The translations under genes were made by a program, and so were the position numbers. A stretch of 64,000 nucleotides of DNA, from assembly GCF_036365525.1 (NCBI RefSeq), contig NC_090391.1, forward strand, positions 34,864,591 through 34,928,590. The letters are read 5' to 3'. The first letter of the stretch is position 1. Every line of letters starts with the position of its first letter. A model generated the notes under the pieces. That model was not told where the DNA came from. It searched no databases and saw nothing but the letters and a program-made list of their open reading frames with translations. Of this stretch, positions 5,030 through 55,019 are shown one piece after another. This DNA is from Heterodontus francisci. Lineage: Eukaryota.

Positions 5030-8000
5030 TTTTTTTTATTCATTCATGGGATGTGGGCGTCGCTGGCCAGACCAGCATTTATTGCCCATCCCTAATTGCC
5101 ATTGAGAAGGTGGTGGTGAGCTGTCTTCTTGACCCGCTGCAGTCCATGTGGGGTAGGTATACCCACAGTGCTGTTAGGAAGGGAGTTTCAGGATTTTGAC
5201 CCAGCGGCAGTGAAGGAACTGCGATATAGTTCCAAGTCAGGATGGTGTGTGACTTGGAGGGGAACTTGTATTGCCATGTGTGTGCTGCCCTTGTCCTTCT
5301 AGTTGGTACATGTCGCGGGTTTGGAAGGTGCTGTCGAGGGAGCCTTGGTGCATTGCTGCAGTGCATCTTGTAGATGGTACACACTGCTGCCACTGTGCGT
5401 CGGTGGTGGAGGGATTGAATGTTTGTAGATGAGGTGGCAATCAAGCGGGCTCCTTTGTCCTGGATGGTGTCGAGCTTCATGAGGTTTCTTGGAGCTGCAC
5501 CCACCCAGGCAAGTTGAGAGTATTCCATCACACTCCTGACTTGTGCCTTGTCGATGGTGGACAGGCTATGGGGAGTCAGGAGCTGAGTTACTCTTCTCAG
5601 GATTCCTAGCCTCTGACCTGCTCTTGTAGCCACGCTATTTATATGGCTACTCCAGTTCAGTTTCTGGTCAATGGTCGCCCCTAGGATGTTGATAGTGGAG
5701 GTTTCAGCGATGGTAATGCCGTTGAATGTCAAGGGGAGATGGTTAGATTCTCTCTTGTTGGAGATTGTCATTGCCTGGCACTTGCGTGGCGCGAATGTTA
5801 CTTGCCACTTATCAGCCCAATCTTGGATATTGTCCAGGTCTTGCTGCATTTCTGCACTGACTGCTTCAGTATCTGAAGAGTCACGAATGGTGCTGAACAT
5901 TGTGCAATCATCAGCGAACCTCCCCACTTCTGACCTTATGATTGAAGGAAGGTAATTGATGAAGCATCTGAAGATGGTTGGGGCTTGGACACTACCCTGA
6001 GGAACTCCTGCAATGATGTCCTGGAGCTCAGATGATTGACCTCCAACAACCACAACCATCTTCCTTTGTGCTCGGTATGCCTCCAGCCAGTGGAGGGTTT
6101 TCCCCCTGATTCCCATTGACCTCAGTTTTGCTAGGGCTCCTTGATGCCATACTCGGTCAAATGCTGCCTTGATGTCAAGGGCAGTCACTCTCACCTCACC
6201 TCTTGAGTTCAGCTCTTTTGTCCATGTTTGATTCAAGGCTGTAATGAGGTCAGCAGCTGAGTGGCCCTGCCGGAACCCAAACTGAGCGTCACTGAGCAGG
6301 ATATTGCTTCGAAAGTGCCGCTTGATGGCACTGTTGATGACACCTTCCATCACTTTATTGATGATTGACAGTAGGCTGATGGGGCGGTAGTTGTCCAGGT
6401 TGGACTTGTCCTGCTTTTTGTGTACAGGACATACCTGGGCAATTTTCCACATTGCAGGGTAGATGCCAGTGTTGTAGCTGTACTGGAACAGCTTGGCTAG
6501 GGGCGCAGCAAGTTCTGGAGCACAGGTCTTCAGTACTATTGCCGGAGTATTGTCAGGGCCCATAGCTTTTGTAGTATCCAGTGCCTTTAGTCGTTTCTTG
6601 GTATCACGAGGAGTGAATCGAATTGGCTGAAGTCAGGGATCTATGATGCTGGGGACCTCAGGAGGAGGCCGAGGTGGATCATCAACTCGATACTTCTGGC
6701 TGAAGATTGTTGCAAAGGCTTCAGCCTTATCTTTCGCACTGATGTGCTGGGCTCCCCCATCATTGAGGATGGGGATATTTGTGGAGCAACCTCCTCCAGT
6801 TAGTTGTTTAATTGTCCACCACCATTCACGGCTGGATGTGACAGGACTGCAGGGCTATGGGATCACTTAGCTCTGTCTGTCGCATGCTGCTTACCCAGTT
6901 TGGCATGCAAGTAGTCCTGGTTTGTAGCTTCACCAGGTTGACACCTCATTTTGAAGTATGCCTGGTGCTGCTCCTGGCATGCCCTCCTGCACTCTTCATT
7001 GAACCAGGGTTGCTCTCCTGGCTTGATAGTAATGGTAGAGTGGGGGATATGCCGGGCCATCAGGTTTCTGGTTGTGGTTGAGTACAATTCTGCTGCTGCT
7101 GATGGCCCACAGCGCCTCATGGATGCCAAGTCTTGCATTGCTAGATCTGTTCGAAATCTATCCCATTTAGCACGGTGATAGTACCACACAACACGATGGA
7201 TGGTATCCTCAATATGAAGGCAGGACTTCGTCTCCACAAGGACTGTGCGGTGGTCACTCCTACCAATACTGTCATGGACAGATGCATCTGCGGCAGGCAG
7301 ATTGGTGAGGACGAGGTAAAGTATGTTCCTCCCTCGTGTTGGTTCCCCCACCACCTGCCGCGGACCCTGTCTAGCAGCTATGTCCTTTAGGACTCGACGA
7401 GCTCGGTCAGTAGTGGTGCTACCGAGCCACTCTTGGTGATGGACATTGAAGTCCCCCACCCAGAGTACATTTTGTGCCCTTGCCACCCTCAGTGCTTCTT
7501 CCAAGTGGTGTTCAACATGGAGGAGTACTGAGTCATCAGCTGAGAGAAGGCGGTATGTGGTAATCAGTAGGCGGTTACCTTTTCCATGTTTGACCTGATG
7601 CCATAGGACATCATGAGGTCCGGAGTCAATGTTGAGGACTCCCAGGGCAACTGCCTCCCTACTGCATACGACTGTGCCACCACCTCTGCTGGGTCTGTCC
7701 TCCCGGTGGGACAGGACATACCCGGGGATGTTGATCGCAGTGTCTGGGACATTGTCTGTAAGGTATGATTCTGTGAGCTTGACTATGTCAAGTTGTTGCT
7801 TGAATATCCTGTGGGACAGCTCTCCCAACTTAGGCAGAAGCCCCCAGATGTTAGTAAGGAGGACTTTGTAGGGTCGACAGCGCTGGGTTTGCCGTTGTCG
7901 TTTCCGGTGCCTTGGTCGATGCTGGGTGGTCCGTCCGGTTTCATTCCTTTTTATTGACTTCGTAGCGGTTAATTACTCTTGAGTAGCTTGCGAGGCCATT

Positions 8001-10929: not shown

Positions 10930-11830
10930 CTGATGTTCTACCTCAACACCATTTTCCTGCTCTATCTTCACATCCCTGGATATTTTAATACCTAAAACCT
11001 ATCCATCTCTGTCTTGAATATACTCAATGACTGAGACTCCACTGCCCGCTGGGATAGGGAATTCCAAAGATTCACCACCCTCTGAGTGAAGATATTCCTC
11101 CTCCTCTCAGTCTTAAGTGGCCTGCCCCTTATTCTGAGAATGTGTCCCTTGGTTCTAGACTCCCCAGCCAGGGAAAACATCCTTCCTGCATCCAACGTGT
11201 CACGCCCTGGAAGAATTTTGTATATTTGAATAAGATCACCTCTCATTATTCGAAACACCAGAGAATACAGGCACAGTTTCCTCAACCTCTCCTCATAGGA
11301 CAAACCTGCCATCTCAGGGATCAGTCTGCTGAACCTTTGTTGTACTCCTTCTATGGCAAGTATATCTTTCCTTAGGTAAGGAGACCAAAACTGTGCACAA
11401 TACTCCAGGTGCAGTCGCACCAATGCTCTATACAATTTCAGCAAGAGTTATTTACACTTGTACTCAAACCCTCTTCCAATAAAGACCAACATGCCAGTTG
11501 CTTTCCTAATTGTTTGCTGCACCTATATGTTACCTTTCAGTGACTCTTGAACAAGGACAGCCAGGTCCCTTTAGATAACAACACTTCCTGACCTCTCACC
11601 ATTTAAGCAAAACTCTGCATTTCTGTTTTTCCTACCAAAGTGGACTACTTCACATGTTTCCATATTATATTTAATCTGCCATGTTCTTTTCCACTCACTC
11701 AGCCTGTAAAAATTCCCTTTAAACCTCCTCACATCCTCCTCTTAACCCACATGCCCACCTAATCTCGTGTAATTTGTAAACTTGGAATAATTATGTTTGG
11801 TCCCCACATCCAAATTCTTGATGTATATTG
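10930..11830 (-). mobile_element. 5'-truncated CR1 LINE
   Basis: ORF 10992-11444 LYRALVRLHLEYCAQFWSP...FTQRVVNLWNSL is the CR1 ORF2 C-terminus. Confidence 0.9.
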
Positions 11831-13289
11831 TTGTATAATAAGTACCTCGATTTGACCTCCCATCAATCTTCTTTAGACAACGGAATACAAACCTCACGAA
11901 AGCAGCCTGCCCTCATAATGTAACCCAATGAGCTCAATATCATCTAGTCAATCTGTGCTGCAACTTCTCAAAGGCTAATAGATTCTTGAACTGAACACAG
12001 CGACTCCAGAAGGGTTCTTACTATGAACGCATGCACCTGAAACAGCACTTCCATCCTTTTGTATTCCCAAACGTCTTGAGGTAACTGCATACTGAATCGC
12101 TGTTTCGGCGTATTATGGGCATAAAACACCAACTTGGCCCCCGGTGCAAGAATTTGAACAGTGGGTTAACCAGGTGAATGGGGGTGTGGAATTTCACAAA
12201 GAGGTGCAACGCTCACCTTGTTTTCGGAGTGTAGAAGCTGGAGTCATCGAGTCTTAGAGTCACAGTGTCCTTCATGGCACAGAAGGAGTCCATTCGGCCC
12301 ATCCAGTTCATGCCAGCTCTCCACGGAACTATGAAGTCTTTCCCACTCCCTGGCACGATCCCCCTTACCTCTACTAGCATCAGTAATGGCGAAAGAGGGA
12401 ACTGTTCCACTGGAAAGGGCTCCACTTAAACCGAGCTGGGAACAATGTCCGAGTGAATTGAATAACCCGGACACTGGGTCAAAATCCTGGAACTCCCTCC
12501 CTAATAGAACTGTGGGTGTACCTGCCCGACATGGATTGCAGCGGGTCAAACAGGCAGCTCAGCACAATCTTCTCAATGGCAATTAAAGATGGGCAATATA
12601 TGTTAGGCTTTGCTAGCAATGCCCAGACACCTGCAGAAGAGATGATTCAAAAGAAAAATCCCTGTTCAGCTGCCAAGACAAAAAGAGACCGGCAAAAAAA
12701 CAACTGCCAGGAATGACAATGTGACCCTTATGGAATGTGCCAGATGCCTTTACATTGATAGTATGGATGTTTTAACCTGTTAGCGCTGCGGGATTGCTTC
12801 CTTACTCTAACTAATTTCTTCTCTATTCTGAGGCCAGGTGCCAATCCAATATGACAGGAGAATTTTGTTGTGTTTCTTTCTGGGAAGCGGCCTTGCATTG
12901 ATAGATAGTTAAGATGCTTTAATAATTTTATAAAGTAATGCACATTTCATTGTACAGCAATACTGCGTTTTCAATGTCTCAATAAACGCATGACAATTTC
13001 ACAACTGACACTGTACTGGTGTTTTTCTAGTGCTACCAGAGGGAAGTGATGTTCCACAATAATCAGTTCTGAAAGCATAATTTATATTAGTGAGACAGGG
13101 ATCCCATTTATTCTCACTGCCTCTTTCTCTCCCTCTCTGTTATAGGAACGGGAGGAGATCATTCAGCTCCTTGATCCTGCTCTCATTCAGTGACATCTCA
13201 GCTGATCTGGATCTTAACCCTATCTGCCTGCCTTGGTTGTTACACCGTTAATCCCCGTGTTCAACAAAAATCTATGTGGGGTCGCTTAC

Positions 13290-15880
13290 CCTTATCTGTC
13301 GCATGCCACTTCTGGTGATTGGCATTATTACATACTTTAAATTCACCAGGTATCTTCTCGTGTGAATTACTACTGCATATTTCACATTTTTCCAGACGAG
13401 GCCTGGTTTGCATTGTTATTGTTTGACATTTACCAGATTTGGTCCAGCGTGCCTTATTATTAAATGTTCCACACTTACCGGATGCTTCCAAGTGTGCATT
13501 ATTATCTAAATGTAATACATTCCAGATGTGAGCTAGTGTGCATTATTATTAAATGTTTCTTAATTACCTGATGTGGTCCAGTGCACATCATTACTAAAAT
13601 CTTCACATTTATCAGCTGCTGCCCAACGCGCTTTATTGCTAAATACATATTTACCAGAGTGGTCAATGTGCATTATTATTAAATGTTTCACATTTATCAG
13701 ATGCAGTGCAATGTGAACTATTACTGAATGCTTCTTTATTTACCAGATGTGATCTAGTGGGCATATTGATTAAATGCTTCACACTTACCAGATGCTGCCC
13801 AGTATGCATTATTACTAAATGCTTCACATTTACCAAATGTGGTCCTATGTGTAGTATCATTAAATGCTTCATATCTTCGAGTTGCAGTCTTGTTTGCATT
13901 AGAATTAAAGGCTTCACGTTTACCAGAGGTGATCAAATGTGCTCTTTTAATAAAGGCATCTTATTGACCAATTATGGTCTCGTGTGCATTATTAATAAAT
14001 GTTTCACATTTACCAGATGTGGTCGAGAGTGAATTATTATTGAACACTTCTTATTTACCGATGTGCTCTTGTGGGCCATATTATTAAAGGCTGCACATTT
14101 ACCAGATGTAGCCCAGCATGCATTATTACTAAGGGATTAACATTTACCAGATGTGGTCTAATGTGCGTTAGCAGTATATTTTTCACATTTTCCAGATGCT
14201 GCCCAGTGAGCCTTATTATTAAATAATTAAATTTATCAGAGATAGTCCAGTGTGTATTACTATTAAAATTTTCACATTTTCCGGATACAGTCTGCTGTAC
14301 ATTGTTATAAATTGTTTCACTTATCCCTGATGTGGTCCAGTTTGCCTTATTATTAAATGTTTCACAATTACCAGATGCTGCCAGGGTGCATTACTAGTAA
14401 CAGTTTCACACATTCCAGTGTGGTCCAGTATGCATGATTATTATTAAATGTTTCAGAAGGTTCAGATACGTCTAGTGTGATTCATTATTAAATACTTCAC
14501 ATTTACCACATTAAATCTGCTATGCATTATTATTAAATGTTTTGCATTTATTTGTTGCTGCCAGTGCGCAGCATTATTAAATACTTCACATTTACCAGAT
14601 GTGGTCAATGTGTGTATTGCTATTAAATATTTTACTTTTGCCAGATGTGATTATGTGTACAATATTATTAAATGTTTCATTTTTACCTGATGTGGTCCCG
14701 TGTGCCCTATTATTAAATGTTTCACATTTATCAGATGCTGCCCAATGTGAAATATTATTACATTATACACATTTACTTGATGTGGCCCATTATTATTACA
14801 TATTTTGTATTTGCCAGAAGCAGTGTAGTATGAATTATTATTGAATGCTTAGGTTTTTTTAGCAGGTGTGATCCAATGGGCCTTATTATTAAATACTTCA
14901 CATTTAACAAACGTGGTTCCCTTCTATTATTATTAAATGCTTCACAGTTTCGAACTGCAGTCTTGTGTGCAGTATTATTCAAAGCTTCAAATTTACCAGA
15001 TGTGGTCAAGTGTGAACTATTATTAAAATCTTCATATTTACCAGATGGGGTCCAGTGTGCGTAAGAAACAAATGTTTCACATTTAGCAGATGCTGCCCAC
15101 TGAGAATTATTATTAAACACTTTACATTTGCCAGGTGCGGTCCAGTATTTATCACTAATACATATTTCACATTTTCTGGATGCGGTCTAGTGTGTATTAT
15201 TATTATTATTATTAATAATGATTTTACACTTTCCAGATGCGGTCTAGTGTGTATTATTATTATTATTATTATTAATAATTGATTCACACTTTCCAGATGC
15301 GGTCTAGTGTGTAGTATTATTATTATTAATAATTGTTTTACACTTTCCAGATGCGGTCTAGTGTGTAGTATTGCTAAATGTTTCATTGTGACCAGATGTG
15401 GCCCAATGCACTTTATTTAGTATTAAATGTTTCAGCTTGACCAATTGTTGCCCAGTGTGTATTATTGTTAAATGTGTCACATTTATCAGATTTGGTGTAC
15501 TGTATATTACTATTATAATTGTCACATTAGCACAATGTGGTCTGGTGTTCATTACATTAAATGCTTTACATTTAACACAATGCAGGGCAGTTTTCGTTAT
15601 TATTATGTTTTCCTGATGTGTCCATGTGCATTATAATTACTAGTCTCACATCTGCCTGATTTGATCAAGACTGCAATGTTATTAAACTCTTCATATTTTA
15701 CAGTTGTGGTCTAGCATGTATTATTATTGAACACTTCACATTTACCAGATTTAATCCAATTCACCTCAGTGTTATTTGTTCCACATTTAACTGATCGTGT
15801 CCAATGTGCATTATTATTGAACATTTCACGTTTGTCAGTTGTGTCCCAATTAGCATTTTATTATTACGTGCTTCACGGTG
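13290..15880. repeat. Degenerate 45-bp tandem array, consensus ~CACATTTACCAGATGTGGTCCAGTGTGCATTATTATTAAATGTTT
   Basis: CATTT(A/T)CCAG recurs at 14096, 14141 and 14186. About 55 units, with (TAT)n expansions inside units at 15195-15330. Confidence 0.92.
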
Positions 15881-16083
15881 TTCAGGTGTGTTCCATGTTT
15901 TTTATCCTCTTCTTCTGCGTTTTCCATTTTGTTTTTCTTGCATTTCAGATGCTTATTTTTTTCTATTTCATACCCATGCGAGGGGCAGGCCCGTTCTTCT
16001 GCCTATTGTATTATTTTCAAACTCTCTCGCAGAGCACCAGCCTGTTTCGGTCCATCACCAGTCAGTGTTATGAAATAGAAGAA

Positions 16084-16384
16084 GAGTTTCTTTTGGCGCC
16101 GGAGGAACCGGAAGCTGGTCGGCAGCGAGGACTCCTGGGTAGGTATTTTCCTTAAAGGTGCGGAGCTCCGTGGACTCGGCCTCATTTCCCGGCGGAGCAG
16201 CAGGAGAAGGTAGCGACTCTTCGGTGGGTGAGTGAAGGCATCAGGAGCTGTGTTTTAAAAGTAAGTACTTACTGTTTTACTTACTGTTTTCCTTGTCTTT
16301 GAGTTTCTTTTGGCGCCGGAGGAACCGGAAGCTGGTCGGCAGCGAGGACTCCTGGGTAGGTATTTTCCTTAAAGGTGCGGAGCT
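16084..16384 (+). repeat. Two identical 84-bp direct repeats in the CR1 5'UTR (16084-16167, 16301-16384)
   Basis: GAGTTTCTTTTGGCGCCGG...AAAGGTGCGGAGCT occurs twice, 217 bp apart. Confidence 0.92.
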
Positions 16385-16561
16385 GAGTAAACCCGAGCCA
16401 CTACACATGTAGTGTCTCCCACCCATCCTCCTCCTGTAACCTAATAATAAGACCCTTTTTACCCTCCTCCTCTAACCAAAAAGGACTGAGCAGGTAAGCT
16501 ATTTACTGTTTTTGTTAATATCTATAGTTGTACTTAACTAAGGGGTAATTGAATAAAAGAA

Positions 16562-17482
16562 ATGGCAGCCAGTGTAGTGTATTGCTCCTCCTGCAGAATG
16601 TTCGAGGTGAGGGAAACCTCCGGTGGCCCTGCCGACTTCACCTGCTGGAAGTGCATCCGTCTCCAGCTCCTATCAGACCGTGTTAGGGAATTGGAGCTGG
16701 AGCTGGATGAACTGAGGATCATTCGGGAAGCTGAGGGGTTGATAGATAGAAGCTACACGGAGGTCGTTACTCCACAAATCAAAGGCAGCTGGGTAACAGT
16801 TAGAGGTGGGAAGAGGTCAGTGCAGGGATCTCCTGTGGTCGTTCCCCTCAACAACAAGTATACAGTTTTAGATACTGTTGGGGGGGACGGCCTATCGGGG
16901 GCAGGCTGCAGTGACCGGGCCTCTGGCACGGGGTCCTGCACTGTGGCTCAGAAGGGAAGGAGGGAGAATGGGAGAGCACTAGTCATCGGGGACTCGATGG
17001 TGAGGAGTACGGACAGGCGGTTCTGTGGGCGCAGGCGAGACGCACGGATGGTTTGTTGCCTCCCTGGTGCCAGGGTCCGTGATGTTTGTGATCGCGTCTT
17101 CAGGATCCTTAAAGGGGAGGGGGAGCAGCCAGAGGTCGTGGTGCACATTGGCACCAACGACGTAGGAAGGAAGGGTGGCACAGATGTTAGAAGTGAGTTT
17201 AGGGAGTTAGGCTGGAAGCTGAAAGCTCGGACGGACAGAGTTGTTATCTCTGGTTTGTTGCCGGCGCCACGTGATAGTGAGGCTAGGAATAGGGAGAGAG
17301 CACAGCTGAACACGTGGCTGCAGGAATGGTGTAGGAGGGAGGGCTTCCAGTTCTTGGATAATTGGACTGCATTCTGGGGAAGATGGGACCTGTTCAAACA
17401 GGACGGGCTGCATCTGAACCAGAGGGGCACCAATATCCTGGGAGGGAGGTTTGCTAGTACTGTTCGGGAGGGTTTAAACTAG
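16562..17482 (+). CDS. CR1 ORF1p: CxxC/CxxC zinc finger, coiled coil and SGNH/GDSL esterase
   Basis: 306 aa; CSSC...CWKC, leucine-zipper-like LELELDEL, GDSMVR, HIGTND, DGLHLN. Confidence 0.93.
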   Translation: MAASVVYCSSCRMFEVRETSGGPADFTCWKCIRLQLLSDRVRELELELDELRIIREAEGLIDRSYTEVVTPQIKGSWVTVRGGKRSVQGSPVVVPLNNKYTVLDTVGGDGLSGAGCSDRASGTGSCTVAQKGRRENGRALVIGDSMVRSTDRRFCGRRRDARMVCCLPGARVRDVCDRVFRILKGEGEQPEVVVHIGTNDVGRKGGTDVRSEFRELGWKLKARTDRVVISGLLPAPRDSEARNRERAQLNTWLQEWCRREGFQFLDNWTAFWGRWDLFKQDGLHLNQRGTNILGGRFASTVREGLN

Positions 17483-17499
17483 TTTGGGAGGGGGATGGG
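17473..17499 (+). promoter_or_regulatory. Candidate -1 programmed ribosomal frameshift signal (U_UUA_AAC plus G-rich downstream element)
   Basis: ORF1 ends GGT TTA AAC TAG. The heptamer is phased X_XXY_YYZ and ORF2 lies in the -1 frame. Confidence 0.65.
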
Positions 17500-20376
17500 A
17501 ACCGGACTTGTAATCCAGGGACCAGTGGGTCCACTCAGAAAGACAAAGAGTGTAGTGAGGTATTGGGGAAGGTAGCACTGTCACAGAGGACAGATGGGCA
17601 CGGAGAAGGGTTAAAGTGCGTATACTTCAACGCAAGAAGCATCAGGAATAAGGTGAGTGAATTGAAGGCGTGGATGGGCACTTGGGACTACGATGTTGTG
17701 GCCATCACTGAAACGTGGATAGGTGAGGGGGAGGAATGGTTTTTGGAGGTACCTGGTTATAGATGTTTTCATAAGATTAGGAATGGTGGTAAAAGAGGTG
17801 GGGGGGGGGTGGCATTGTTAGTTAGAAATAGTGTAACAACTGCTGAAAGAATTTTCGAGGAGGATCTGCCGACTGAGGCACTGTGGGTTGAGGTCAGGAA
17901 CAGGAAAGGAGCAGTCACCTTGATGGGAGTTTTCTATAGGCCCCCCAATAGCAGCAGGGAGGTGGAAGAGCAGATTGGGAAACAGATTTTGGAAAGGAGC
18001 AGAAGTCACAGGGTAGTAATTATGGGGGATTTCAACTTCCCAAATATTGATTGGCAACTCTTTAGATCGAATAGTTTGGATGGGGTAGTGTTTGTGCAGT
18101 ATGTCCAGGAAGCTTTTCTGACTCAGTATGTAGACTGCCCGACCAGAGGGGAGGCAATATTGGATTTGGTACTAGGTAATGAACCAGGGCAAGTGATAGA
18201 GCTGTTGGTGGGCGAGCACTTTGGAGATAGTGATCACAATTCTGTAGCATTCACTGTGGTAATGGAGAGGGATAGGTATGTGCAACAGGGCAAGGTTTAC
18301 AATTGGGGGAAGGGTAGATATGATGCTGTCAGGCAGGAACTGAGGAGCATAAGTTGGGAGCATATGCTGGCAGGGAAGGGCACGGTCGAAATGTGGAACT
18401 TTTTCAAGGAGCAGATAGTAGGGGCCATTGATAAGCATGTCCCTGTCAGACAGGGAAGGGATGGTCATGTGAGGGAACCGTGGTTGACAAGAGAGGTTGA
18501 GAGTCTTGTTAGGAAGAAGAAGGATGCGTATATAAAGTTGAGGAAAAAGGGCACAGGCATAGCTCTGGAGGGATACAAGATGGCCAGGAAGGATCTGAAG
18601 AAAGGGATTAGGAGAGCTAAGAGAGGGCATGAAAAATGCTTGGCGGGTAGGATAAAAGAAAACCCCAAGGCCTTTTACGCGTATGTCAGAAATATGAGGA
18701 TGACTAGGGGGACCATAGGTCCGGTCAAGGACAATAGCGGGAGACTGTGTGTTGAGCCGGAAGAGATAAGTGAGGTTTTGAATGAGTACTTCTCTTCGGT
18801 ATTTACGAATGAGAAGGGGTGTATTACTGAAGAGGACGGTGTGAAACAGACTGGTAAGCTCGAGGAAGTGCTCGTTAGGAGGGAAGATGTGTTGGGGTTT
18901 TTGAATAACTTGAAGATAGACAAGTCTCCCGGGCCTGACGGGGTATATCCAAGGATGTTATGGGAAGCAAGGGATGAAATTGCAGAGCCGCTGGCAATGA
19001 TCTTTTCATCTTCTCTGCTGACGGGGGTGGTACCAGGTGATTGGAGGGTGGCAAATGTTGTGCCCCTGTTCAAGAAAGGGAATAGGAACAACCCTGGGAA
19101 TTACAGGCCAGTTAGTCTTACTTCGGTGGTAGGCAAGTTGATGGAAAAGGTGCTGAGGGATAGGATTTCTGAGCATCTGGAAAGACACTGCTTGATTCGG
19201 GACAGTCAGCACGGTTTTGTGAGGGGTAGGTCTTGCCTCACAAGCCTGATTGAATTCTTTGAGCAGGTGACCAAGCAAGTGGATGAGGGTAAACCAGTGG
19301 ATGTGGTGTACATGGATTTTAGTAAGGCATTTGATAAGGTCCCCCATGGTAGACTTATGGAGAAAGTCAGGAGGCATGGGATAGTGGGGAATGTGGCCAG
19401 TTGGATTAAGAATTGGCTAACTGATAGAAGGCAGAGAGTGGTCTTAGATGGTAAATACTCAGCCTGGAGCCCAGTTACCAGTGGCGTGCCGCAGGGATCA
19501 GTTCTGGGTCCTCTCCTGTTTGTGATTTTTATTAACGACTTGGATGAGGAAGTCGAAGGGTGGGTCAGTAAATTTGCAGATGATACAAAGGTTGGTGGAG
19601 TTGTGGATACCGAGGAGGGCTATTGTCGTCTGCAAAGGGACTTGGATAGGTTGCAGTGCTGGGCTGAAAAGTGGCAGATGGAGTTTAACCCTGAAAAGTG
19701 TGAGGTCGTCCATTTTGGAAGGACAAACACGAATGCAAAATACTGGGTTAACGGTAGGGTTCTTGGGCATGTGGAGGAGCAGAGAGACCTTGGGGTCTAT
19801 GTGCAGAGATCGTTGAAAGTTGCAACTCAAGTGGATAGGGCTGTGAAGAAGGCATATGGGGTGTTAGCGTTCATTAGCAGAGGGATTGAATTTAAGAGCC
19901 GTGAGGTGATGATGCAGCTGTACAGGACCTTGGTAAGGCCTCATTTGGAGTACTGTGTGCAGTTCTGGTCGCCTCATTTTAGGAAGGATGTGGAAGCCTT
20001 GGAGAGGGTGCAGAGGAGATTTACCAGGGTGTTGCCTGGAATGGAGAATAAGTCTTACGAGGAAAGGCTGAACATTCTAGGCCTCTTCTCATTAGAACGG
20101 AGAAGGATGAGGGGTGACATGATAGAGGTTTATAAGATGATCAGGGGAATAGATAGGGTAGACAGTCAGAAACTTTTTCCCCGGGTGGAGCAAAGCGTTA
20201 CAAGGGGTCATAAATTTAAGGTGAAGGGTGGGAGATATAAGGGGGATGTCAGGGGAAGGTTCTTTACCCAGAGAGTGGTCGGGGCATGGAATGCCTTGCC
20301 TGGGGAAGTTGTTGAGTCAGAAACTTTAGGGACTTTCAAACGGCTTTTAGATAGGTATATGGATAAAGGAGAATGA
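17479..20376 (+). CDS. CR1 ORF2p: APE endonuclease plus reverse transcriptase (no AUG before the APE; start inferred from a -1 frameshift)
   Basis: Frame is open from 17458 to TGA 20374-20376; motifs YFNARS, ITETW, GDFN, SDH, YRPVSL, DFSKAFD, GVPQGS, FADD. Confidence 0.93.
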   Translation, partial: LVWEGDGNRTCNPGTSGSTQKDKECSEVLGKVALSQRTDGHGEGLKCVYFNARSIRNKVSELKAWMGTWDYDVVAITETWIGEGEEWFLEVPGYRCFHKIRNGGKRGGGGVALLVRNSVTTAERIFEEDLPTEALWVEVRNRKGAVTLMGVFYRPPNSSREVEEQIGKQILERSRSHRVVIMGDFNFPNIDWQLFRSNSLDGVVFVQYVQEAFLTQYVDCPTRGEAILDLVLGNEPGQVIELLVGEHFGDSDHNSVAFTVVMERDRYVQQGKVYNWGKGRYDAVRQELRSISWEHMLAGKGTVEMWNFFKEQIVGAIDKHVPVRQGRDGHVREPWLTREVESLVRKKKDAYIKLRKKGTGIALEGYKMARKDLKKGIRRAKRGHEKCLAGRIKENPKAFYAYVRNMRMTRGTIGPVKDNSGRLCVEPEEISEVLNEYFSSVFTNEKGCITEEDGVKQTGKLEEVLVRREDVLGFLNNLKIDKSPGPDGVYPRMLWEARDEIAEPLAMIFSSSLLTGVVPGDWRVANVVPLFKKGNRNNPGNYRPVSLTSVVGKLMEKVLRDRISEHLERHCLIRDSQHGFVRGRSCLTSLIEFFEQVTKQVDEGKPVDVVYMDFSKAFDKVPHGRLMEKVRRHGIVGNVASWIKNWLTDRRQRVVLDGKYSAWSPVTSGVPQGSVLGPLLFVIFINDLDEEVEGWVSKFADDTKVGGVVDTEEGYCRLQRDLDRLQCWAEKWQMEFNPEKCEVVHFGRTNTNAKYWVNGRVLGHVEEQRDLGVYVQRSLKVATQVDRAVKKAYGVLAFISRGIEFKSREVMMQLYRTLVRPHLEYCVQFWSPHFRKDVEALERVQRRFTRVLPGMENKSYEERLNILGLFSLERRRMRGDMIEVYKMIRGIDRVDSQKLFPRVEQSVTRGHKFKVKGGRYKGDVRGRFFTQRVVGAWNALPGEVVESETLGTFKRLLDRYMDKGE

Positions 20377-20533
20377 TGGGGTATAGATTAAATTGTCCTT
20401 GACAGAGGACAAAGGATCGGCACAACATCGTGGGCCGAAGGGCCTGTTCTGTGCTGTATTTTTCTATGTTCTATGTTCTAATGTGGGTTGATATTTACAC
20501 AGCCTGATCCAGCTTTCTCCCAATTACTTGCTA

Positions 20534-29881: not shown

Positions 29882-31265
29882 TAACATAGAACATAGAACA
29901 TAGAACAGTACAGCACATTACAGGCCCTTCGGCCCACGATGTTGTGCCGAACCTTTAACCTACCTTATGATCAAACTACCTATATACCCTTCATTCTACT
30001 ATCATTCATGTACCTATCCAAGAGTCGCTTAAATGTCCCTAAGGTATCTGCTTCTACTACCACCGCTGGCAGTGCATTCCACGCACCCACCACTCTCTGT
30101 GTAAAGAACCTATCTCTGACATCTCCCCGAAACCTTCCTCCAATCACCTTAAAATTATGCCCCCTGGTGATAGCCCTTTCCGCCCTTGGGAAAAGGTCTC
30201 TGGCTATCCACTCTTAGCTCCAATGAGAAAAGCCCTAGCTCCCTCAACCTTTCTTCATAAGACATGCCCTCCAGTCTAGGCAGCATCCTGGTAAATCTCC
30301 TCTGCACCCTCTCTAAAGCTTCCACATCCTTCCCATAATGAGGCGACCAGAACTGAACACAATATTCCAAGTGTGGTCTAACCAGGGCTTTATAGAGCTG
30401 CAGCATAACCTCATGGCTCTTAAACTCAATCCCCCTGTTAACGAAAGCCAAAACACAATACGCCTTCTTAACAACCCTGTCAACTTGGCTGGCAACTTTG
30501 AGCGATCTATGGACATGGACCCCAAGATCCCTCTGTTCCTGCACAGTACCAAGAATCCTGTCTTTAAGACTGTACTGCATTCAAATTCGACCTTCCAAAA
30601 TGAATCACTTCACACTTCTCCAGGTTGAACTCCATCTGCCACTTCTCAGCCCAACTCTGCATCCTGTCAATGTCCCGTTCCAACCTACAACAGCCTTCCA
30701 CACTATCCACAACGCCAGAAATCTTCGTGTCATCGGCAAACTTGCTAACCCAGCCTTCTACCATCTCATCCAAGTCATTTATAAAAATCACAATGAGCAG
30801 AGGTCCCAGAACAGATCCCTACGGAACACCATTGGTCACCGAGCTCCAGGCTGAATACTTTCCATCGACTACCACCCTCTGTCTTCTATGGGCCAGTCAA
30901 TGTTGTATCCAGACAGCCAACTTTCCCTGTATCCCATGCCTCCTTACTTTCTGAATGAGCCGACCATGGGGAGCCTTGCTAAAATCCATATACACCACAT
31001 CCACTGCTCTTCCTTCATCAATATGTTTTGTCACATCTTCAAAGAATTCAATAAGGCTTGTGAGGCATGACCTGCCCCTGACAAACCGTGCTGACTGTCT
31101 CTAAGCAAACGATGATTTTCCAAATAATCATAAATCCTGTCTCTCAGAATCCTCTCCAATAACTTGACCACTACCGACGTAAGACTGACTCGCCTATAAT
31201 TCCTAGGGTTATCCCTATTCCCTTTCTTGAACAAGGGAATAACATTTGCCACCCTCCAATCATCG
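29882..31265 (-). mobile_element. 5'-truncated CR1 LINE in the GPCR intron
   Basis: (AACATAG)n tail and RT fragments (FADD, LEYCVQFWSP); same subfamily as 48129-50325. Confidence 0.92.
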
Positions 31266-32244
31266 AAACAGTTCATCAAAGATACACATGCTAGAATCGC
31301 TTTATGTGTTGTGTAACTTAAGACCTGATTTTATATACTTATAGATGCTTGTGTATTCTGGTGTGTAAAGTAACTCAATGAATCAAGGTCCAACACAGGT
31401 TGTGATTATTGGTGTCTCCCAGTGATCTGGACTGAGGCCACAGCTTTTCACTGTATTTCCACATGACTTGAATTCATGATTCGAGGGACATCTATTTACA
31501 ATTGTTGACGACCCTACGTTAAGTGTCTCAATAAATAGTATAGATTAAAAGAAAACTGTGCAAAGGGTTGTCGATAGTTTAAACGATTTGTTAAACTGTG
31601 GGATCTGAAGGTGTGAGGTCATTCACCTTGCATCAAAGAGAGGTAAATCAGACTACATTCTTAGGAGCTGGGGACAAGCTGAGCGGTTTGCATATCAAAT
31701 ACAGATATCACCAGGGCTTAAATTACAATTTCAATACGGAGGCAACCGGATTAAGAATTAGGGAAACAATGCAGTGGATGCTCTTAATAGGGATAGATGA
31801 GATTTGATGGTTTGAATTGCAAGGAAGGAAAAATAAATAAACTGGAGCCGTTGGAGTTCTCCGTGCAATGCAGGTCAGCAAATGGAGCAGTGTTTCTTGA
31901 CAGGAACCTGATATGGAATAGGATAAAGGCAGAAGAGTGTTGGATTCACCAGTAAATGGACGGTGGGGGATGGACCATCAGCCAGGTGACAATTGCTATG
32001 TATGAGTCTGAATGAGACAGAGGCATGGACGTACGTTTCAATATCTGATGTACTGAGATAAGAGTGGAACCAAGAGTACTATGATGTGGAATGCGGGGGT
32101 TAACTGTTACGGCGTGACACACGGTTTTATGAACGTGACTCTGTATTGTTAAAAGAAAATGGAATTTATAGTAAAGCTCAAGAATGTTATGCCAGATTTG
32201 TGTTTAAATTAGGAGAACTGAGGGTGCCGGATTGGCAACAGTGG

Positions 32245-41109: not shown

Positions 41110-43470
41110 CAGACTCGGAGGGCGGAGTTCCAGACTGGTAAGTATAAAAAACCTACCTCGGGGATATTCGGAGCAGACTCGGAGGGCGGAGTTCCAAAGC
41201 GGTAAGTATATAAAAAAAACTTACCTCGGGGATTCTCGGAACAGACTCAGAATGCGGAGTTCCAGACCCGGTAAGTTACCTCGGGTGGGGAAAAAGTACT
41301 GATAAAGTGACGTCACAGGAAAGCTGCGACCTGATTGGCTGGTCGGGAATCTGTACCGAATTTGAAAATAAAACTGATAAAAATTGATTAAAACACTAAT
41401 TAACTAATTTATAAGTAGAGTAACTAAACCAGAGGGAGGATATTACTGTATTTAGACAGCATTTAATATTTATTGTAGAAATCTAGCACGAGGGGCCACA
41501 TAGTGAAGTATATCATTATTTAGGAAGGATTTAATAAGTATTTATTTATTTTATATCAATTAACTAATTATTGATAGAAATGACAGTTAGAGGGGTGTAG
41601 CGCTTCACCTGTGAGATGTGGGAAGTCCGTGACGCTTCCAGCGACTACATCTGCAGGAAGGGTACCCGGTTGCAGCTCCTCACAGACCGTATGGTTCGGT
41701 TGGAACGGCAACTGGATGCACTTAGGAGCATTCAGGTGGCGGAAAGCATCATAGACAGGAGTTTTAGAGAAGTGGTTACACCCAAAATGCAGGCAGATAG
41801 ATGGGTGACCGCTAGAAGAGGCAGGCAGTCAGTGCAGGAATCGTCTGTGGCTATCCCCCTCTCCAACAAGTACACCGTTTTGGATACTGTTAGGGGGGAT
41901 GGCCTATCAGGGAAAACAGCAGCAACCAGAGCAGTGGCACCACGGCTGGCACTGTTGTTCAGCAAAGAAGGACAAAGCACAGAAGAGCAATAGTTACAGG
42001 GGACTCTATAGTCAGGGGCACAGTTAGGCGCTTCTGTGGACGTGAAACAGACTCCAGGAAGGTATGTTGCCTCCCTGTTGCCAGGGTCAAGGATGTCTCT
42101 GAACGGACAGAGGGCATTCTGAAGGGGGAGGGTGAACAGCCAGAGGTTGTGGTACACATCGGTACCAATGACATAGGCAGGAAGAGTGATGAGGTCCTGC
42201 AGGGGGAGTTTAGGGAGATAGGTAGTAAGTTAAAAAAAGCAGGACTTCTAGGGTTGTAATATCTGGATTACTCCCTGTGCCACGTGCCTGTGAGGCTAGA
42301 AATAGGAAGATAGTGCAGCAAAACACGTGCATAGGCAGCTGGTGTAGAATGGAGGGTTTCAGATATTTTTCTGAATGGAGGGATGTGACTCGTGGTGTTC
42401 CGCAGGGATCAGTGCTGGGACCTTTGCTGTTTGTGGTATATATAAATGATTTGGAGGAAAATGTAGCTGGTCTGATTAGTAAGTTTGTGGACGACTCAAA
42501 GGTTGGTGGAGTTGTGGATAATGATGGCGACTGTCAGAAGATACAGCAGGATATATATCATTTGGAGAATTGGGCGGAGAAATGTCAGATGGAGTTTAAT
42601 CCGGACAAATGTGAGGTAATGCCTTTTGGAAGGTCTAATGCAGGTGGGAAGTATACAGTAAATGGCAGAACACTTAGGAGTATTGACAGGCAGAGAGATC
42701 TGGGCGTACATGTCCACAGGTCACTGAAAGTGGCAACGCAGGTGGATAAGGTATTCAAGAAGGCATTCGGCATGCTTGCCTTCATCGGTCGGGGCATAGA
42801 GTATAAAAATTAGCAACTCATGTTGCAGCTGTACAGAACCTTAGTTAGGCCACACTGAGAATATTGCGTGCAATTCTGGTCGGCACACTACCAGAAGGAC
42901 GTGGAGGCTTTGGAGAGGGTACAGAGGAGGTTTACCAGGATGTTACCTGGTCTGGAGGGCATTAGCTATGAGGAGAGGTTGGAAAAACTCGCATTGTTGT
43001 CACTGGAACGACGGAGGTGGAGGGGCGACATGATAGAGGTTTGCAAAGTTATGAGCGGCATGGACAGAGTGGATAGTCAGAAGCTTTTTCCCAGGGTGGA
43101 GGGGCGACATGCTAGAGGTTTGCAAAGTAATGAGCGGCATGGACAGAGTGGATAGTCAGAAGCTTTTTTCCCAGGGTGGAAGAGTCAGTTACTAGGGGAC
43201 ATAGGTTTTCGTTGCGAGGGGCAAAGTTTAGAGGGGATGTGCGAGGCACGTTTTTTACACAGAGGGTGGTGAGTGCCTGGAACTTGCTGCCAGAGGAGGT
43301 GGTAGAAGCAGATACGATAGCGACGTTTAAGAGACATCTTGACAAATATATGAATAGGAAGGGAATAGGGGGATATGGGCCCCGGAAGTGCAGAAGGTGT
43401 TAGTTTCGGCAGGCATCAAGATCGGCGCAGGCTTGGAGGGCCGAATGGCCTGTTCCTGTGCTGTACTGTT
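41110..43470 (+). mobile_element. Internally deleted CR1 LINE (5'UTR and degenerate ORF1 fused to the RT C-terminal half)
   Basis: ORF1 homology 41580-42365 (PLSNKYTVLDTV, GDS, HIGTND) joins directly to FSEWRDVTRGVPQGS. Three ~65-bp 5'UTR repeats at 41110-41285; ~80-bp tandem duplication at 43018-43180. Confidence 0.9.
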
Positions 43471-44960: not shown

Positions 44961-45124
44961 TAACAGTTGAAAGTTTCATATCGTATATCAGAGACTACCA
45001 GACAGAAAGGAAGAGCCTCACTCTCACTCAGTAGCAGATACTGACATTTAAGGAATGAATCTCATATTGACATATTGGCTAATATCTCATGTTGGCTAAG
45101 GTTAATTGGGTAAATTACACATCC

Positions 45125-47145
45125 ATGTCTCACCCAGGAAGTTAAGGAGAGTATCAGACTGAAACAAAAGACCTACAATGTTCCAAATAATGGTAGCAAG
45201 TCTGAGGATTGGAAGTGTTTTAGAAACCAGCAGAAAGCCACTAAAAAGTTGATAAAAAAGGAAAAATAGAATATAAGTAAACCATCTAGCAATAGAAAAA
45301 CAAATTGTAAGAGCTTTTATAAGTCCATAAAAAGGAAGAGAATAGCTAAAGTTGATGTGAGTCCCTTAGAGGCAAAGACAGGAGAACACAGCATGGGGAA
45401 TGAAGAAATGGCAGAGGCATTGAACAAATATGTTGTGTCTGTTTCACAGTAGAAGACACAAATTCCACACCAGAAATACTCAGTAACCTCGTGGCTAAAA
45501 AGAGTGAGGAAATTAAGGATAACAATATGAGCTATGTAAAAGTGTTGGGAAAACTTGAGGGACTAAAATCTGACAAGTCTCCAGGACCAGATGGCCTACA
45601 TCGTAGAATTTTAAAAGAGATTGCTGCAGAGATCGTGAATGCTCTGGCTATGGTTTTCCAGAATTCCTTAGATTCAGGAATGAGCCCGTCAGATTGGAAG
45701 TTGGTCAATGTTTCATTGATTTTCAAGAAAGGAAGTGAAGAGAAAACAGAGAACTACTGGTCAGTTGCCTAACATCAGTCATTGGGAACATGATGGAAAC
45801 TATTATTAAAGAAGTCTTTACATTGTACTTGGAAAAGCATAGTACAATTAGAATAAGTTAGCATGGTTTTACTAAAGGGGGATCCTGTTTCCCAAATTTA
45901 GTAGTTTTTTGAGGATGTAACTAGGGTAGATAAAGGGGAACCAGTAGATGTAGTAAACCTTTTTCAAAAGGATTTTCAAAAGGCATTCGATAAGGTGCCA
46001 CGTCAAAGGTTAATAGGCAAGATAGGGCTCATGGTGTTGAGCATAATATGTTAGCATGGAGAGAGGATTGGGTAACAGACAGGAAGCACAGAGTAGGCAT
46101 AAATTGGGCATTTTCAAGTTGGCAGGTGCCGCAAGGATCAGAATTGGGGCCTCAGCTATATACACTCTATATTAATAACTTGGATGACGAGACAGAGTGT
46201 AATGTATCTATGTTTGCTGATGATAGAAAGCTCGGTGGAAAGGAAAGATGCAGGGAGGAGGTAGAGAGGCTGCAACGTGATATAGACGGGTTAAGTGAGT
46301 AGGCAACAAGAGGCAAAACGGAGTATAATGTAGGGAAATGTGAAATTGTTCACTTTGGTCATAAAAATAGAAAAGCTGAATATTTTTAAAAGGTATGAAA
46401 CTGGTAAGTGTTGATGTTCATAGAGACTTGGGCTACTCGTACAAGGAACACAAACAGTGAACATACATTGCAGCAGGCCATTAGGAAGGCAAATGACATG
46501 TTGGCCTTTATTGCAAGGGGATTGGAATACAGGAATAAGGAACTCACACTCAAATTGTACAGGGCCTTGGTGAGACTGCACCTGGAATACTGTATGCAGT
46601 TTTGGTCACCCCATTTAAGAAAGGATATACTTGCACTGGAGGCAGAGCAGTGAAGATTTATTCAATTGGTCCCTGAGATGAGGGGGCTGTTCTAAGATAA
46701 GGGACTGAGTAAATTGGGGCTATATTCTCTGGAGTTTAGAAGAATGAGAGGTGATCGAATTGAGATTGACAAGATTCTGAAAGGACTTGATAGCGTAGAA
46801 GCTGAGAGATTGTGTCCGCTCGTCGGCGAATCTAGAACACGTGGACACAGTCTCAGGATAAGGGGCCGATCATCTAGGACTGAGATGAGGAGAAATTACC
46901 ACACTCAAAGTGTTGTGAATCTTCTCAATTCTCCACCCCAGAAGATTGTGGATGCTTCATCATTGAATGCATTTAAGGATGGGGGAGATAGATTTTTGGT
47001 TTCACAGGGAATCAAGGGATATGGGGTATGGGCAGAAAAGTGGAATTGAAGCCCAAGGTCAACCATGAACGTATTAAATGGTGGAGCAGGCTCGACGGGC
47101 TATATAGTCCACTCCTGCTCCTATTTCTTGTGTTCTTGTGTTCTT
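45125..47145 (+). mobile_element. 5'-truncated degenerate CR1 LINE
   Basis: KSPGPDGLH, VPQGSELGP, FADD, LEYCMQFWSP; (TTCTTGTG)n tail. Confidence 0.92.
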
Positions 47146-48128: not shown

Positions 48129-50325
48129 GAACATAGAACATAGAACAGTACAGCACAGTACAGGCCCTTCGGCCCACGATGTTGTGCCGACCCTTTAACC
48201 TACTCTAAGATCAAACTACTCATTCTACTATCATCCATGTACCTATCCAAGAGTCGCTTAAATGTCCCGAATGTATCTGCTTCTACTACCACCGCTGGCA
48301 GTGCATTCCACGCACCCACCACTCTCTGTGTAAAGAACCTACCTCTGACATCTCTCCTGAACCTTCCTCCAACCACCTTAAAATTATGCCCCCTGGTGAT
48401 AGCCCTTTTTGCCCTGGGAAAATGTCTCTGGCTATCCACTCTATCTATGCCTCTCATCATCTTGTACACCTCTATCAATTCACCTCTCATCCTTCTTCGC
48501 TCCAATGAGAAAAGCCCTAGCTCCCTCAACCTTTCTTCATAAGACATGCCCTCCAGTCTAGGCAGCATCCTGGAAATCTCCTCTGCACCCTCTCTAAAGC
48601 TTCCACATCCTTCCCATAATGATGCGACCAGAACTGAACACAATATTCCAAGTGTGGTCCAACCAGGGCTTTATAGACCTGCAGCATAACCTCACGGCTC
48701 TTAAACTCAACCCCCCCCCCCCACCCCGTTAATGAAAGCCAACACACCATACAGCTTCTTAACAACCCTATCAACTTGGGTGGCAACTTTGAGGGATCTA
48801 TGGACATGGACCCCAACATCCCTCTGTTCCTCCGCACTGCCAAGAATCCTGTCTTCAAGCCTGTATTCTGCATTCAAATTCGACCTTCCAAAATGAATCA
48901 CTTCGCACTTTTCCAGGTTGAACTCCATCTGCCACTTCTTAGCCCAGCTCTGCATTCCGTCAATGTCCCGTTGCAACCTACAACAGCCCTCTACACTATT
49001 CACAACTCCATCAACCTTTGTGTCATCGGCAAACTTACTAACCCTGCCTTCCACTTCCTCATCCAAGTCCTTTATAACAATCACAATGAGCAGAGGTCCC
49101 AGAACAGATCCCTACGGAACACCACAGGTCTCCGAGCTCCAGCTGAATACTTTCCATCTACTACCACCCTCTGTCTTCTATGGGCCAGCCAATTCTGAAT
49201 CCAGACAGCCAAATTTCCCTGTATCCCATGCTTCCTCACTTCCTGAATGAGCCTACCATGGGGAACCTTATCAAACGCCTTGCAGATATCCATATACACC
49301 ACATCCACTGCTCTTCCTTCATCAATGTGTTTTGTCACATGTTCAAAGAATTCAATAAAGCTTGTGAGGCATGACCTGCCACTCACAAAGCCATGCTGAC
49401 TATCTCTAATCAAACTATGCTTTTCCAAATAATCATAAATCCTGTCTATCAGAATCCTCTCCAATAATTTGCCGACCAGCGACGTAAGACTGACTGCTCT
49501 GTAATTCCCAGGGTTATCCCTATTCCCTTCCTTGAACAAGGGAATAACATTTGCCACTCTCCAATCATCTGATACCACTTCAATGGACAGTGAAGACGTA
49601 AAGATCATCGCCAAAGACGCGGCAATCTCTTCCCTCGCTTCCGGTAATAACCTTGGCTATATCCCGTCTGGCCCCGGGGACTTATCTTTCCTCATGTCTT
49701 TCAAAATTTCCAGCACATCCTCCTTCTTAACATCAACCTGTTCGAGCACATCAGCCTGTTTCACGCTGTCCTCACAAACGACAAGGTCCATCTCACTAGT
49801 GAATACTGAAGCAAAGTATTCATTAAGGACCTCCCCTACCTCCTCCGACTCCAGGCACAAGTTCCCTCCCTGATCGATCCCACCCTCACACTGGCCATCC
49901 TCTTGTTCCTCACATAAATGGAGAATGCATTGGGATTTTCCTTAATCCTACCCGCCAAGACGTTTTCATGTCCCCTTCTAACTCTCCTAAGTCCATTCTT
50001 CAGTTCCTTCCTGGCTACCTTGTAACCCTCTAGAGCCCTGTCTGATCCTTGCTTCCTCAACCTTAAGTAAGCTTCCTTATTCCTCTTGACTAGCTGTTCC
50101 ACATCTCTTGCCATCAAAGGTTCCTTCACCCTACCATCGCTTCCTTGCCTCAACGGGACAAACCTATCCAGCAGTCGCAGCAAATGCTCCCTAAACGATC
50201 TCCACATTTCTGTCGTGCATTTCCCTGAGAACATCGGTTCCCAATTTATGCTCCCCAGTTCCTGCCTAATAGCATTGTAATTCCCCCTCCCCCAATTAAA
50301 TATTTTCCCATCCCGTCTGTTCCTG
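48129..50325 (-). mobile_element. 5'-truncated CR1 LINE nested in an older plus-strand CR1 fragment (47880-48128 and 50330-50520)
   Basis: (AACATAG)n tail and frameshifted RT ORFs. The flanks read ...GGAAGGCAAATGGAATG / ATTGCAAGGGGAATGG..., which are consecutive in CR1 RT. Confidence 0.9.
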
Positions 50326-50624
50326 ATGTGATTAATTGCAAGGGGAATGGACTATTAAAGTAAGGAAGATTTGCGACAGTTGTCCAGGGTATTGGTGGGA
50401 CCCATCTGTCATATTGTGTACAATTTTGGTCTCTTTACCGAAGAAAACATAAAATTGCATTAGAAGTGGTTCATGGAAGGTTCATTCGAATGATTGCGAA
50501 GGTGAGAAGGGGTTATCTTATGCGATCGAACCTGTCATTCAAAACGCTTGTCGGAAAACTGGAAAATAACTTAATCTGAAAATTGAACAGTTGCTATTGA
50601 AATCATTACAGTCAATGGATTCTT

Positions 50625-54742: not shown

Positions 54743-55019
54743 TTACTGAGAGCTTGTCAGTACAACTGAGAGAAAACAGTTTTGGGATCTTGCAACACCT
54801 ATTCCTGAGAATCTTTTGCTTTGATTTATCCAATTTAATTTATTTTACTGCTCTGCTCCTGGGGGCATTTGTTTTACTTTGAAAACTATAATGACAATAT
54901 GTGGAGAGAGTGAGAGAGTTTTGTGATGAGGAATATGATTGGACAGGCTGTCCATCCGCCCTGGAAGGATAGGTGAAGGGGAAGGGGAAAAGGAGGTGCG
55001 ATCGTGCTGTTAATGCAGG

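Follow-up and report, generated by a model that had tools for sequence, protein, structure and literature searches.

The 64,000-nucleotide stretch of Heterodontus francisci DNA analysed here (assembly GCF_036365525.1, contig NC_090391.1, positions 34,864,591 to 34,928,590; hereafter the window) carries on its forward strand a full-length, intact long interspersed element (LINE), which is taken by its anatomy to be of the CR1 type. Its two open reading frames (ORFs) are both open and meet at a TTTAAAC heptamer directly before the ORF1 stop codon, and this heptamer is predicted to be a site of -1 programmed ribosomal frameshifting (PRF), at which ORF2 would be joined to ORF1. The first ORF encodes an SGNH/GDSL esterase (PF13472, E 6e-14, above the cut-off), with an N-terminal region that probably comprises CxxC..CxxC and a putative coiled coil, and the second encodes a variable linker, an APE endonuclease (PF03372 at residues 49-253, from profile position 2) and a reverse transcriptase (RT; PF00078 at residues 534-755), with further matches to the L1 endonuclease and exonuclease III. 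CR1 elements end in a 3' microsatellite tail instead of poly(A), and the element in the window combines such a tail with an SGNH esterase in ORF1 and APE and RT in ORF2, as expected of the esterase-type CR1 clade. Other copies in the same genome align from its first base onward with 97.5-99.8% identity, indicating a young family, and the last 80 amino acids of ORF1 are 100% identical in 150 of 150 scored genome hits (see Table 1 for coordinates).

The ORF1 frame is open from 16553 to 17482 and its last codons are GGT TTA AAC TAG, placing the heptamer in the phase X_XXY_YYZ. The -1 frame is open from 17458 to 20376, and the 306 codons of ORF1 and the 965 codons of ORF2, counted from the codon at 17479, add up to a predicted fusion of 1271 amino acids. 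The first ATG of ORF2, residue 66 from the shift site, lies 3' of APE motif I, in which N-A/V-R-S is kept in eight of eight aligned rows. Exonuclease III residue 2 aligns with ORF2 residue 46 and L1 endonuclease residue 22 with ORF2 residue 57, and the ATG matches about residue 31 of the L1 endonuclease; a protein started there would therefore lack some 30 residues at the start of the nuclease fold, the motif I Asn among them. In Zorro3, mutation of a conserved early endonuclease Asn lowered retrotransposition to below 5% (PMC1965478), and this Asn is probably the same residue. The positions of the heptamer, of motif I and of the first ORF2 ATG, the frame of ORF2, the length of the fusion and the truncation of the endonuclease had been put forward in a first-pass annotation, every coordinate of which proved correct; the predicted truncation is supported by the exonuclease III and L1 endonuclease alignments.

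The window contains 16 TTTAAAC words when both strands are counted, so a single one is uninformative, and what exceeds chance at the junction is its phase and its conservation. A separate peculiarity of the junction is AAACTAGTTT at 17473-17486, around the stop, a perfect 10-bp palindrome in the window's family that is absent from the other families.

Table 1. Features of the CR1 element and related fragments in the window
Feature	Coordinates	Strand	Basis
CR1-type LINE	16084..20480	+	copy alignments from 16084, both ORFs open
5' untranslated region (UTR), unit of ~84 bp duplicated (16084-16167; second ends 16384)	16084..16561	+	sequence and copy alignment
ORF1, 306 aa, ATG at 16562, SGNH/GDSL esterase, C-terminal Gly-Leu-Asn-stop	16562..17482	+	PF13472
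TAG closing the -1 (ORF2) frame, 5 codons 5' of the heptamer, no ATG between	17455..17457	+	sequence
Slippery heptamer T_TTA_AAC, phase X_XXY_YYZ, predicted -1 shift site	17473..17479	+	phase and conservation
ORF2, -1 frame, 965 codons counted from the shift site; encodes a variable linker, then APE endonuclease and reverse transcriptase	17479..20376	+	PF03372, PF00078
ORF1 stop TAG, adjoining the 3' end of the heptamer	17480..17482	+	sequence; in 17 family representatives TAA or TAG, never TGA
G5 run, conserved, 3' of the heptamer after a 10-nt spacer, candidate stimulator	17490..17494	+	positions +11 to +15 in 15-17 of 17 families
GGACC/GGTCC hairpin, not conserved	17519..17532	+	folding against shuffles, family comparison
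APE motif I YFNARS, 5' of the first ORF2 ATG	17623..17640	+	exonuclease III alignment; 8/8 rows
First ORF2 ATG, residue 66 from the shift site, within the APE fold	17674..17676	+	L1 endonuclease alignment
3' microsatellite tail (TTCTATG)n	20462..20480	+	sequence and copy alignment
CR1/L2-like ORF2 fragment	5364-7897	-	
CR1/L2-like ORF2 fragment	10995-11846	-	
CR1/L2-like ORF2 fragment	30004-31300	-	
CR1/L2-like ORF2 fragment	42367-43358		
CR1/L2-like ORF2 fragment	45108-46998		
CR1/L2-like ORF2 fragment	48233-50351	-	
CR1/L2-like ORF2 fragment	52974-54746	-	
CR1/L2-like ORF2 fragment	56730-57542		

Conservation of the junction across CR1 families

Related loci were collected by six protein searches of the shark's own genome and one metagenome scan (54 loci), and ORF1 ends were placed by a profile from which the final alignment columns, LN among them, had been omitted. 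Among 162 profile hits, 155 had enough remaining sequence to be scored, and TTTAAAC stands directly 5' of the first ORF1 stop in 136 of these; of the other 19, five run on for 30 codons with no stop and 14 are single variants, for the most part with point changes or indels. The 140 junctions with a stop at the expected distance formed 18 clusters at 80% identity, and removal of L133, in which the junction is deleted, left 17 family representatives, all of them natural copies (four from the own genome and 13 from metagenome records). The heptamer positions are common to 16-17 of the 17 representatives, the stop is TAG in 14 and TAA in three and never TGA, and positions +11 to +15 after the heptamer, occupied by a run of five G's, are common to 17, 17, 15, 17 and 15 families, respectively. 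The first-pass annotation had made its reading depend on conservation of the heptamer in other full-length copies, and the heptamer is indeed kept in phase across deeply diverged families at synonymous positions.

The codon of L305 is TTA in 16/17 representatives, against a background probability of 0.13 for TTA among Leu codons, and that of N306 is AAC in 16/17, while the codon before TTA takes nine forms and ends in T in 16/17 representatives; under the null, the chance of the heptamer is 0.008-0.035 per family, and GGGGG occupies a comparable slot in 1.1% of the ORF2 background. Nearby four-fold third positions are only 34% identical (140 of 413), that is, saturated, and the amino acids 38%. 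L285, which is as invariant as L305, is coded by CTG, CTA, CTT and CTC and never by TTA, and among 28 conserved ORF1 columns a comparable codon fixation is seen in just one other, a Cys. Synonymous bases are thus fixed amid saturated sites, so the constraint acts on nucleotides. Two groups of relatives differ in detail at the junction: L071 (680-690) belongs to a distant family with G_TTA_AAC, the sole family-level variant of the heptamer, and has the G-run one codon nearer, and a distant CR1 group (L073-L075, L083 and L097) carries three to five additional residues ahead of LN, with the heptamer and, after the 10-nt spacer, a G5-6 run both retained. The three most distant aligned APE domains have 32-37% identity to that of the window.

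At the protein level, an ORF1 alignment of 36 rows, picked from full-length hits, shows L305 and N306 without exception in all 36. Among the best 120 of 175 ORF1 homologues, a DGxHL-type motif occurs in 87, of which 81 end 22-30 residues later, and Leu-Asn-stop closes 78 of these 81, the remaining three ending in IN, VN and NG. The source labels of the homologues include sharks, rays, coelacanth, a teleost, frogs, turtles, a snake and lizards, with identity down to about 30%. One homologue with 89% identity to the window's ORF1 (P0001) bears the NCBI label Pseudomonas aeruginosa, which is probably host contamination, and no relatives were found in viral contigs or GTDB contigs.

The motif TTTAAAC-TAR-N7-GGGGG (TAR being TAA or TAG) has 37,769 exact matches in this genome, where CR1 is accordingly very abundant, and its reversed control has 48. 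The first 30 motif loci, taken by the motif alone and blind to ORF1 (seven of them one tandemly repeated copy), all terminate an ORF1-like peptide in LN, with an in-phase DGLHL in 25; as to APE motif I, 17 loci have it in the -1 frame, two have it in other frames and 11 gave no match; 14 are stop-free, six of these also lacking ATG. The seven spacer bases differ among close families of this genome, and both the heptamer and the G-run stay. The tandem copies, L211-L217 (G000 C1:71668-183165), repeat one CR1 ORF1 end, with an identical peptide, seven times at intervals of ~18-19 kb in a long tandem array. Judged by these comparisons of sequence, the signal is real and clade-wide.

The frames are arranged alike in the families. 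The -1 frame is stop-free from the heptamer to APE motif I in 12/17 representatives, through a linker of 37-87 codons, the remaining five being cut short or decayed, and APE is in the -1 frame in all 12 informative representatives. Upstream of the heptamer the -1 frame has no ATG in 16/17 and is mostly closed within 1-14 codons, which bars any earlier entry through an AUG. Between the heptamer and APE motif I, four of the 12, the window's family included, have no ATG, leaving them without a usable AUG, and 37 of 44 copies in the window's cluster reach APE motif I with neither a stop nor an ATG. The premise of the first-pass annotation that ORF2 offers no AUG before the endonuclease therefore stands for the window's cluster and for the frame upstream of the heptamer, and does not extend to the eight other informative representatives discussed below.

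Proposed frameshifting and its rivals

The reading favoured here, with a probability of roughly 80%, is that -1 frameshifting at U_UUA_AAC yields an ORF1-ORF2 fusion in a clade that extends from cartilaginous fish to amniotes; conservation and frame geometry thereby favour the Gag-Pol-like frameshifting first suggested for the window, slippage itself being deduced from sequence. The majority of ribosomes would terminate at the adjoining UAR (UAA or UAG) and release the free 306-aa ORF1 protein, and a minority would slip back one base on the heptamer and read the variable linker, then APE and RT; their product would be a fusion of about 1271 amino acids, comparable to Gag-Pol. Candidate stimulators are the G-run 10 nt downstream, which could be protein-bound or form a weak quadruplex, and slow decoding of the adjoining stop; the G-run, the stop, or both, may pause the ribosome. 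As in canonical -1 PRF, the X_XXY_YYZ heptamer is phased, the -1 frame is open and the heptamer is conserved beyond coding need, and as in protein-stimulated PRF of the type found in PRRSV, the virus behind porcine reproductive and respiratory syndrome, a conserved unstructured motif lies about 10 nt 3' of the shift site.

Several points weigh against this reading, whose basis is sequence and not translation. The 17 families are not fully independent, and the family count overstates independence because about nine of them are related, amniote-like families. An in-frame ATG precedes APE in eight of the 12 informative representatives, at scattered positions, and in 7/17 representatives an ATG lies at most three codons from the ORF1 stop (two TAATG, four TAGnnATG and one later), as in reinitiation signals. 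Moreover, a missing AUG does not by itself force a frameshift, because L1 ORF2 is translated without needing one. Regarding the stimulator, folding of nine correctly placed 3' segments against shuffles (L126 excluded) yielded z values from -1.54 to +1.74 and neither a stable fold nor a shared one, by a tool that does not model pseudoknots, and no pseudoknot or stem-loop was found at the canonical 5-9 nt downstream; no conserved long-range or C-rich partner of the G-run recurs across families; and a three-tier quadruplex, possible in 1/17 families, was rejected.

Both the G-rich tract, which spans 17486-17499 in the window, and the GGACC/GGTCC hairpin that the first-pass annotation had listed downstream are present, and of the two only the tract, through its G5 run, is conserved. 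The hairpin was discarded as a stimulator, for it lies 39 nt past the heptamer, folds like shuffled sequence (z -0.31 to +0.25) and is absent from other families. Pairing of the G-run with the YRPP or CCLPGA stretches, a C-rich stretch of ORF1 or the 3' UTR gave no site common to the families, and the CCLPGA codons are unconstrained save for one Cys codon. A two-tier quadruplex is possible in 8/17 families, with a background of 6%.

Termination and reinitiation, that is, translational coupling as in SART1 and L1, is the strongest rival and is considered unlikely. On this view, ribosomes that terminate at UAR would resume translation in the -1 frame from a nearby AUG or non-AUG codon and so make ORF2 as a free protein; the conserved bases would serve coupling and only resemble a slippery site, or coupling would operate alongside frameshifting in some lineages. 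The seven representatives with an ATG near the stop, and three more with GTG, suit such a route, as do UAGnnAUG, a described reinitiation layout, and the AUG-independent initiation described for L1 ORF2. A large family of this genome (L031-L050 and L160-L179) carries the heptamer together with an overlapping TAATG, the SART1 stop-start pentamer, and may use two routes to ORF2; within it, the ATG was lost in 13 copies and the heptamer changed synonymously in 15, both of which resemble decay after insertion. Reinitiation, nevertheless, leaves the phased X_XXY_YYZ with its fixed synonymous bases unexplained, and 7/17 representatives, including the window's family, have neither ATG nor GTG near the stop, the window's element lacking any AUG that overlaps or adjoins it. 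Close families of this genome vary freely at the start-codon bases, yet keep the heptamer and the G-run, and reinitiation predicts no fixed frame for APE, contrary to its constant -1 position.

Conservation at the protein level, of the esterase C-terminal Leu-Asn or of an ORF2 Phe-Lys-Leu-x-x-x-Gly, or else a cis-acting role in some other step, for instance RNA packaging, recoding being absent in either case, is regarded as very unlikely. It would agree with the invariance of L305 and N306 and with the nearly invariant Gly four codons into the -1 frame. With other synonymous sites saturated, however, constraint on the protein cannot account for the fixed TTA and AAC, for the T before them or for the G's at third positions, and the closed upstream -1 frame leaves no earlier AUG entry to ORF2. 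Least probable of all, and close to dismissal, is translation of ORF2 from a separate RNA, produced either by splicing to the AG within the stop or by an internal promoter, the motif being a splicing or transcription signal: TAG does end in AG and G-runs are known splicing elements, but three of the 17 families have TAA and so no AG, an acceptor at the stop would still leave the window's family without an AUG, and contigs from runs of two studies cross the junction unbroken, with none of eight listed joints being GT..AG, a weak point as the RNA status of these contigs is guessed. Transcriptional slippage on the G-run is discounted by the position of the run 3' of the stop, and stop readthrough is rejected because ORF2 is out of frame.

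A search for longer fused ORF1-ORF2 proteins returned three hits, one of them an esterase-APE gene model that crosses the site in the -1 frame; this model and two proteins like it seem to be decayed copies or joins made in gene modelling, and they were not counted as evidence.

If frameshifting is indeed used clade-wide, the real CR1 enzyme would be the ORF1-ORF2 fusion, with consequences for annotation and for building a working CR1 retrotransposition assay, and vertebrate genomes would hold a very old, high-copy case of -1 recoding whose stimulator is unlike viral pseudoknots. A more speculative extension, held only tentatively, is that vertebrate CR1 LINEs have kept a novel -1 signal (heptamer, immediate stop and unstructured G5 run at 10 nt) since before the split of sharks and bony vertebrates, that a host protein binding the G-run, or the ORF1 protein, acts as its switch, and that the esterase-endonuclease-RT fusion rides in the ORF1 particle like retroviral Gag-Pol; the host would gain a point of translational control over the LINE that is commonest in it.

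Other features of the element and the window

The duplicated unit of the 5' UTR occupies 16084-16167 and about 16301-16384, and some genome copies give extra overlapping alignments there, which suggest further units in those copies, resembling a monomer promoter. The 5' flank at 16072-16083 is the reverse complement of a tail-like TTCTAT word (compare the tail), and inspection by eye revealed no clear target-site duplication around the LINE (16072-16083 and 20462-20480). Just upstream of the element, judged by eye, 13600-15900 is a degenerate tandem repeat, rich in AT, whose unit measures roughly 50 bases. The window also holds many further 5'-truncated CR1/L2-like ORF2 fragments (Table 1), and the one at 5364-7897 (minus strand) is a distant APE-RT element with 23-29% identity.

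Comparison with known systems

Described esterase-type CR1 LINEs have the same domain content, two ORFs and microsatellite tail as the element in the window (PMC3905857). Full-text literature searches, which did not extend to the older primary CR1 papers, returned no description of frameshifting in CR1, and the available portions of PMC3905857, PMC8665684, PMC11835228 and PMC4255032 do not mention a programmed frameshift for it; an earlier remark on the CR1 ORF overlap may exist in the literature, a chance judged to be well below even. In the chicken genome, CR1 is the commonest repeat, according to the literature consulted.

Reviews call the way in which LINEs translate ORF2 an open question, and the known answers are reinitiation or coupling, as the first-pass annotation had stated in general; it overlooked a non-LTR precedent for frameshifting. 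One of the reviews treats the initiation of LINE ORF2 as open, and frameshifting is not among the options in the part available (PMC3894237). SART1, with its UAAUG stop-start coupling (PMC3894237), and L1, with its unconventional reinitiation, perform the same task of obtaining ORF2 from a bicistronic LINE RNA, and some CR1 families share TAATG; in these systems the ORF2 protein is made free and a slippery heptamer is unnecessary, whereas the window's CR1 family has no AUG before APE. The precedent is provided by Dictyostelium TRE5-A and TRE3-A, for which the figure legend of a review states that a -1 frameshift is required for translation of ORF2 (APE-RT) (PMC5911963); they are likewise non-LTR elements, and their ORF1 and host group differ from those of CR1. 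A +1 shift or readthrough has been suggested for Paramecium LINEs, and HeT-A gag is a further recoding precedent in non-LTR elements.

Among viral systems, the closest are the -1 PRF sites of the coronavirus infectious bronchitis virus type (U_UUA_AAC) and the equine arteritis virus type (G_UUA_AAC), in which two ORFs overlap at the same phased heptamer and the -1 frame encodes the polymerase. U_UUA_AAC ranks with the shiftiest heptamers for mammalian ribosomes in a review that also lists the G_UU(A) form for equine arteritis virus (PMC5009743); the L071 variant matches this form. Viral frameshift structures usually lie 5-9 nt downstream of the slippery site (PMC7618472), and CR1 differs in that neither a pseudoknot nor a stem-loop was found there, in having a stop directly after the heptamer and in being a non-LTR retrotransposon; its site is predicted to work as a viral -1 PRF site does, and departs from one in the canonical stimulator. 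A nearer parallel for the stimulator is the -1/-2 PRF of PRRSV nsp2, which depends on an unstructured, protein-bound C-rich stimulator at a 10-nt spacer (PMC4937337). The CR1 motif is likewise short, conserved and unstructured and has an equal spacer, while it is G-rich instead of C-rich and follows another heptamer, and in PRRSV a trans-acting protein is at work.

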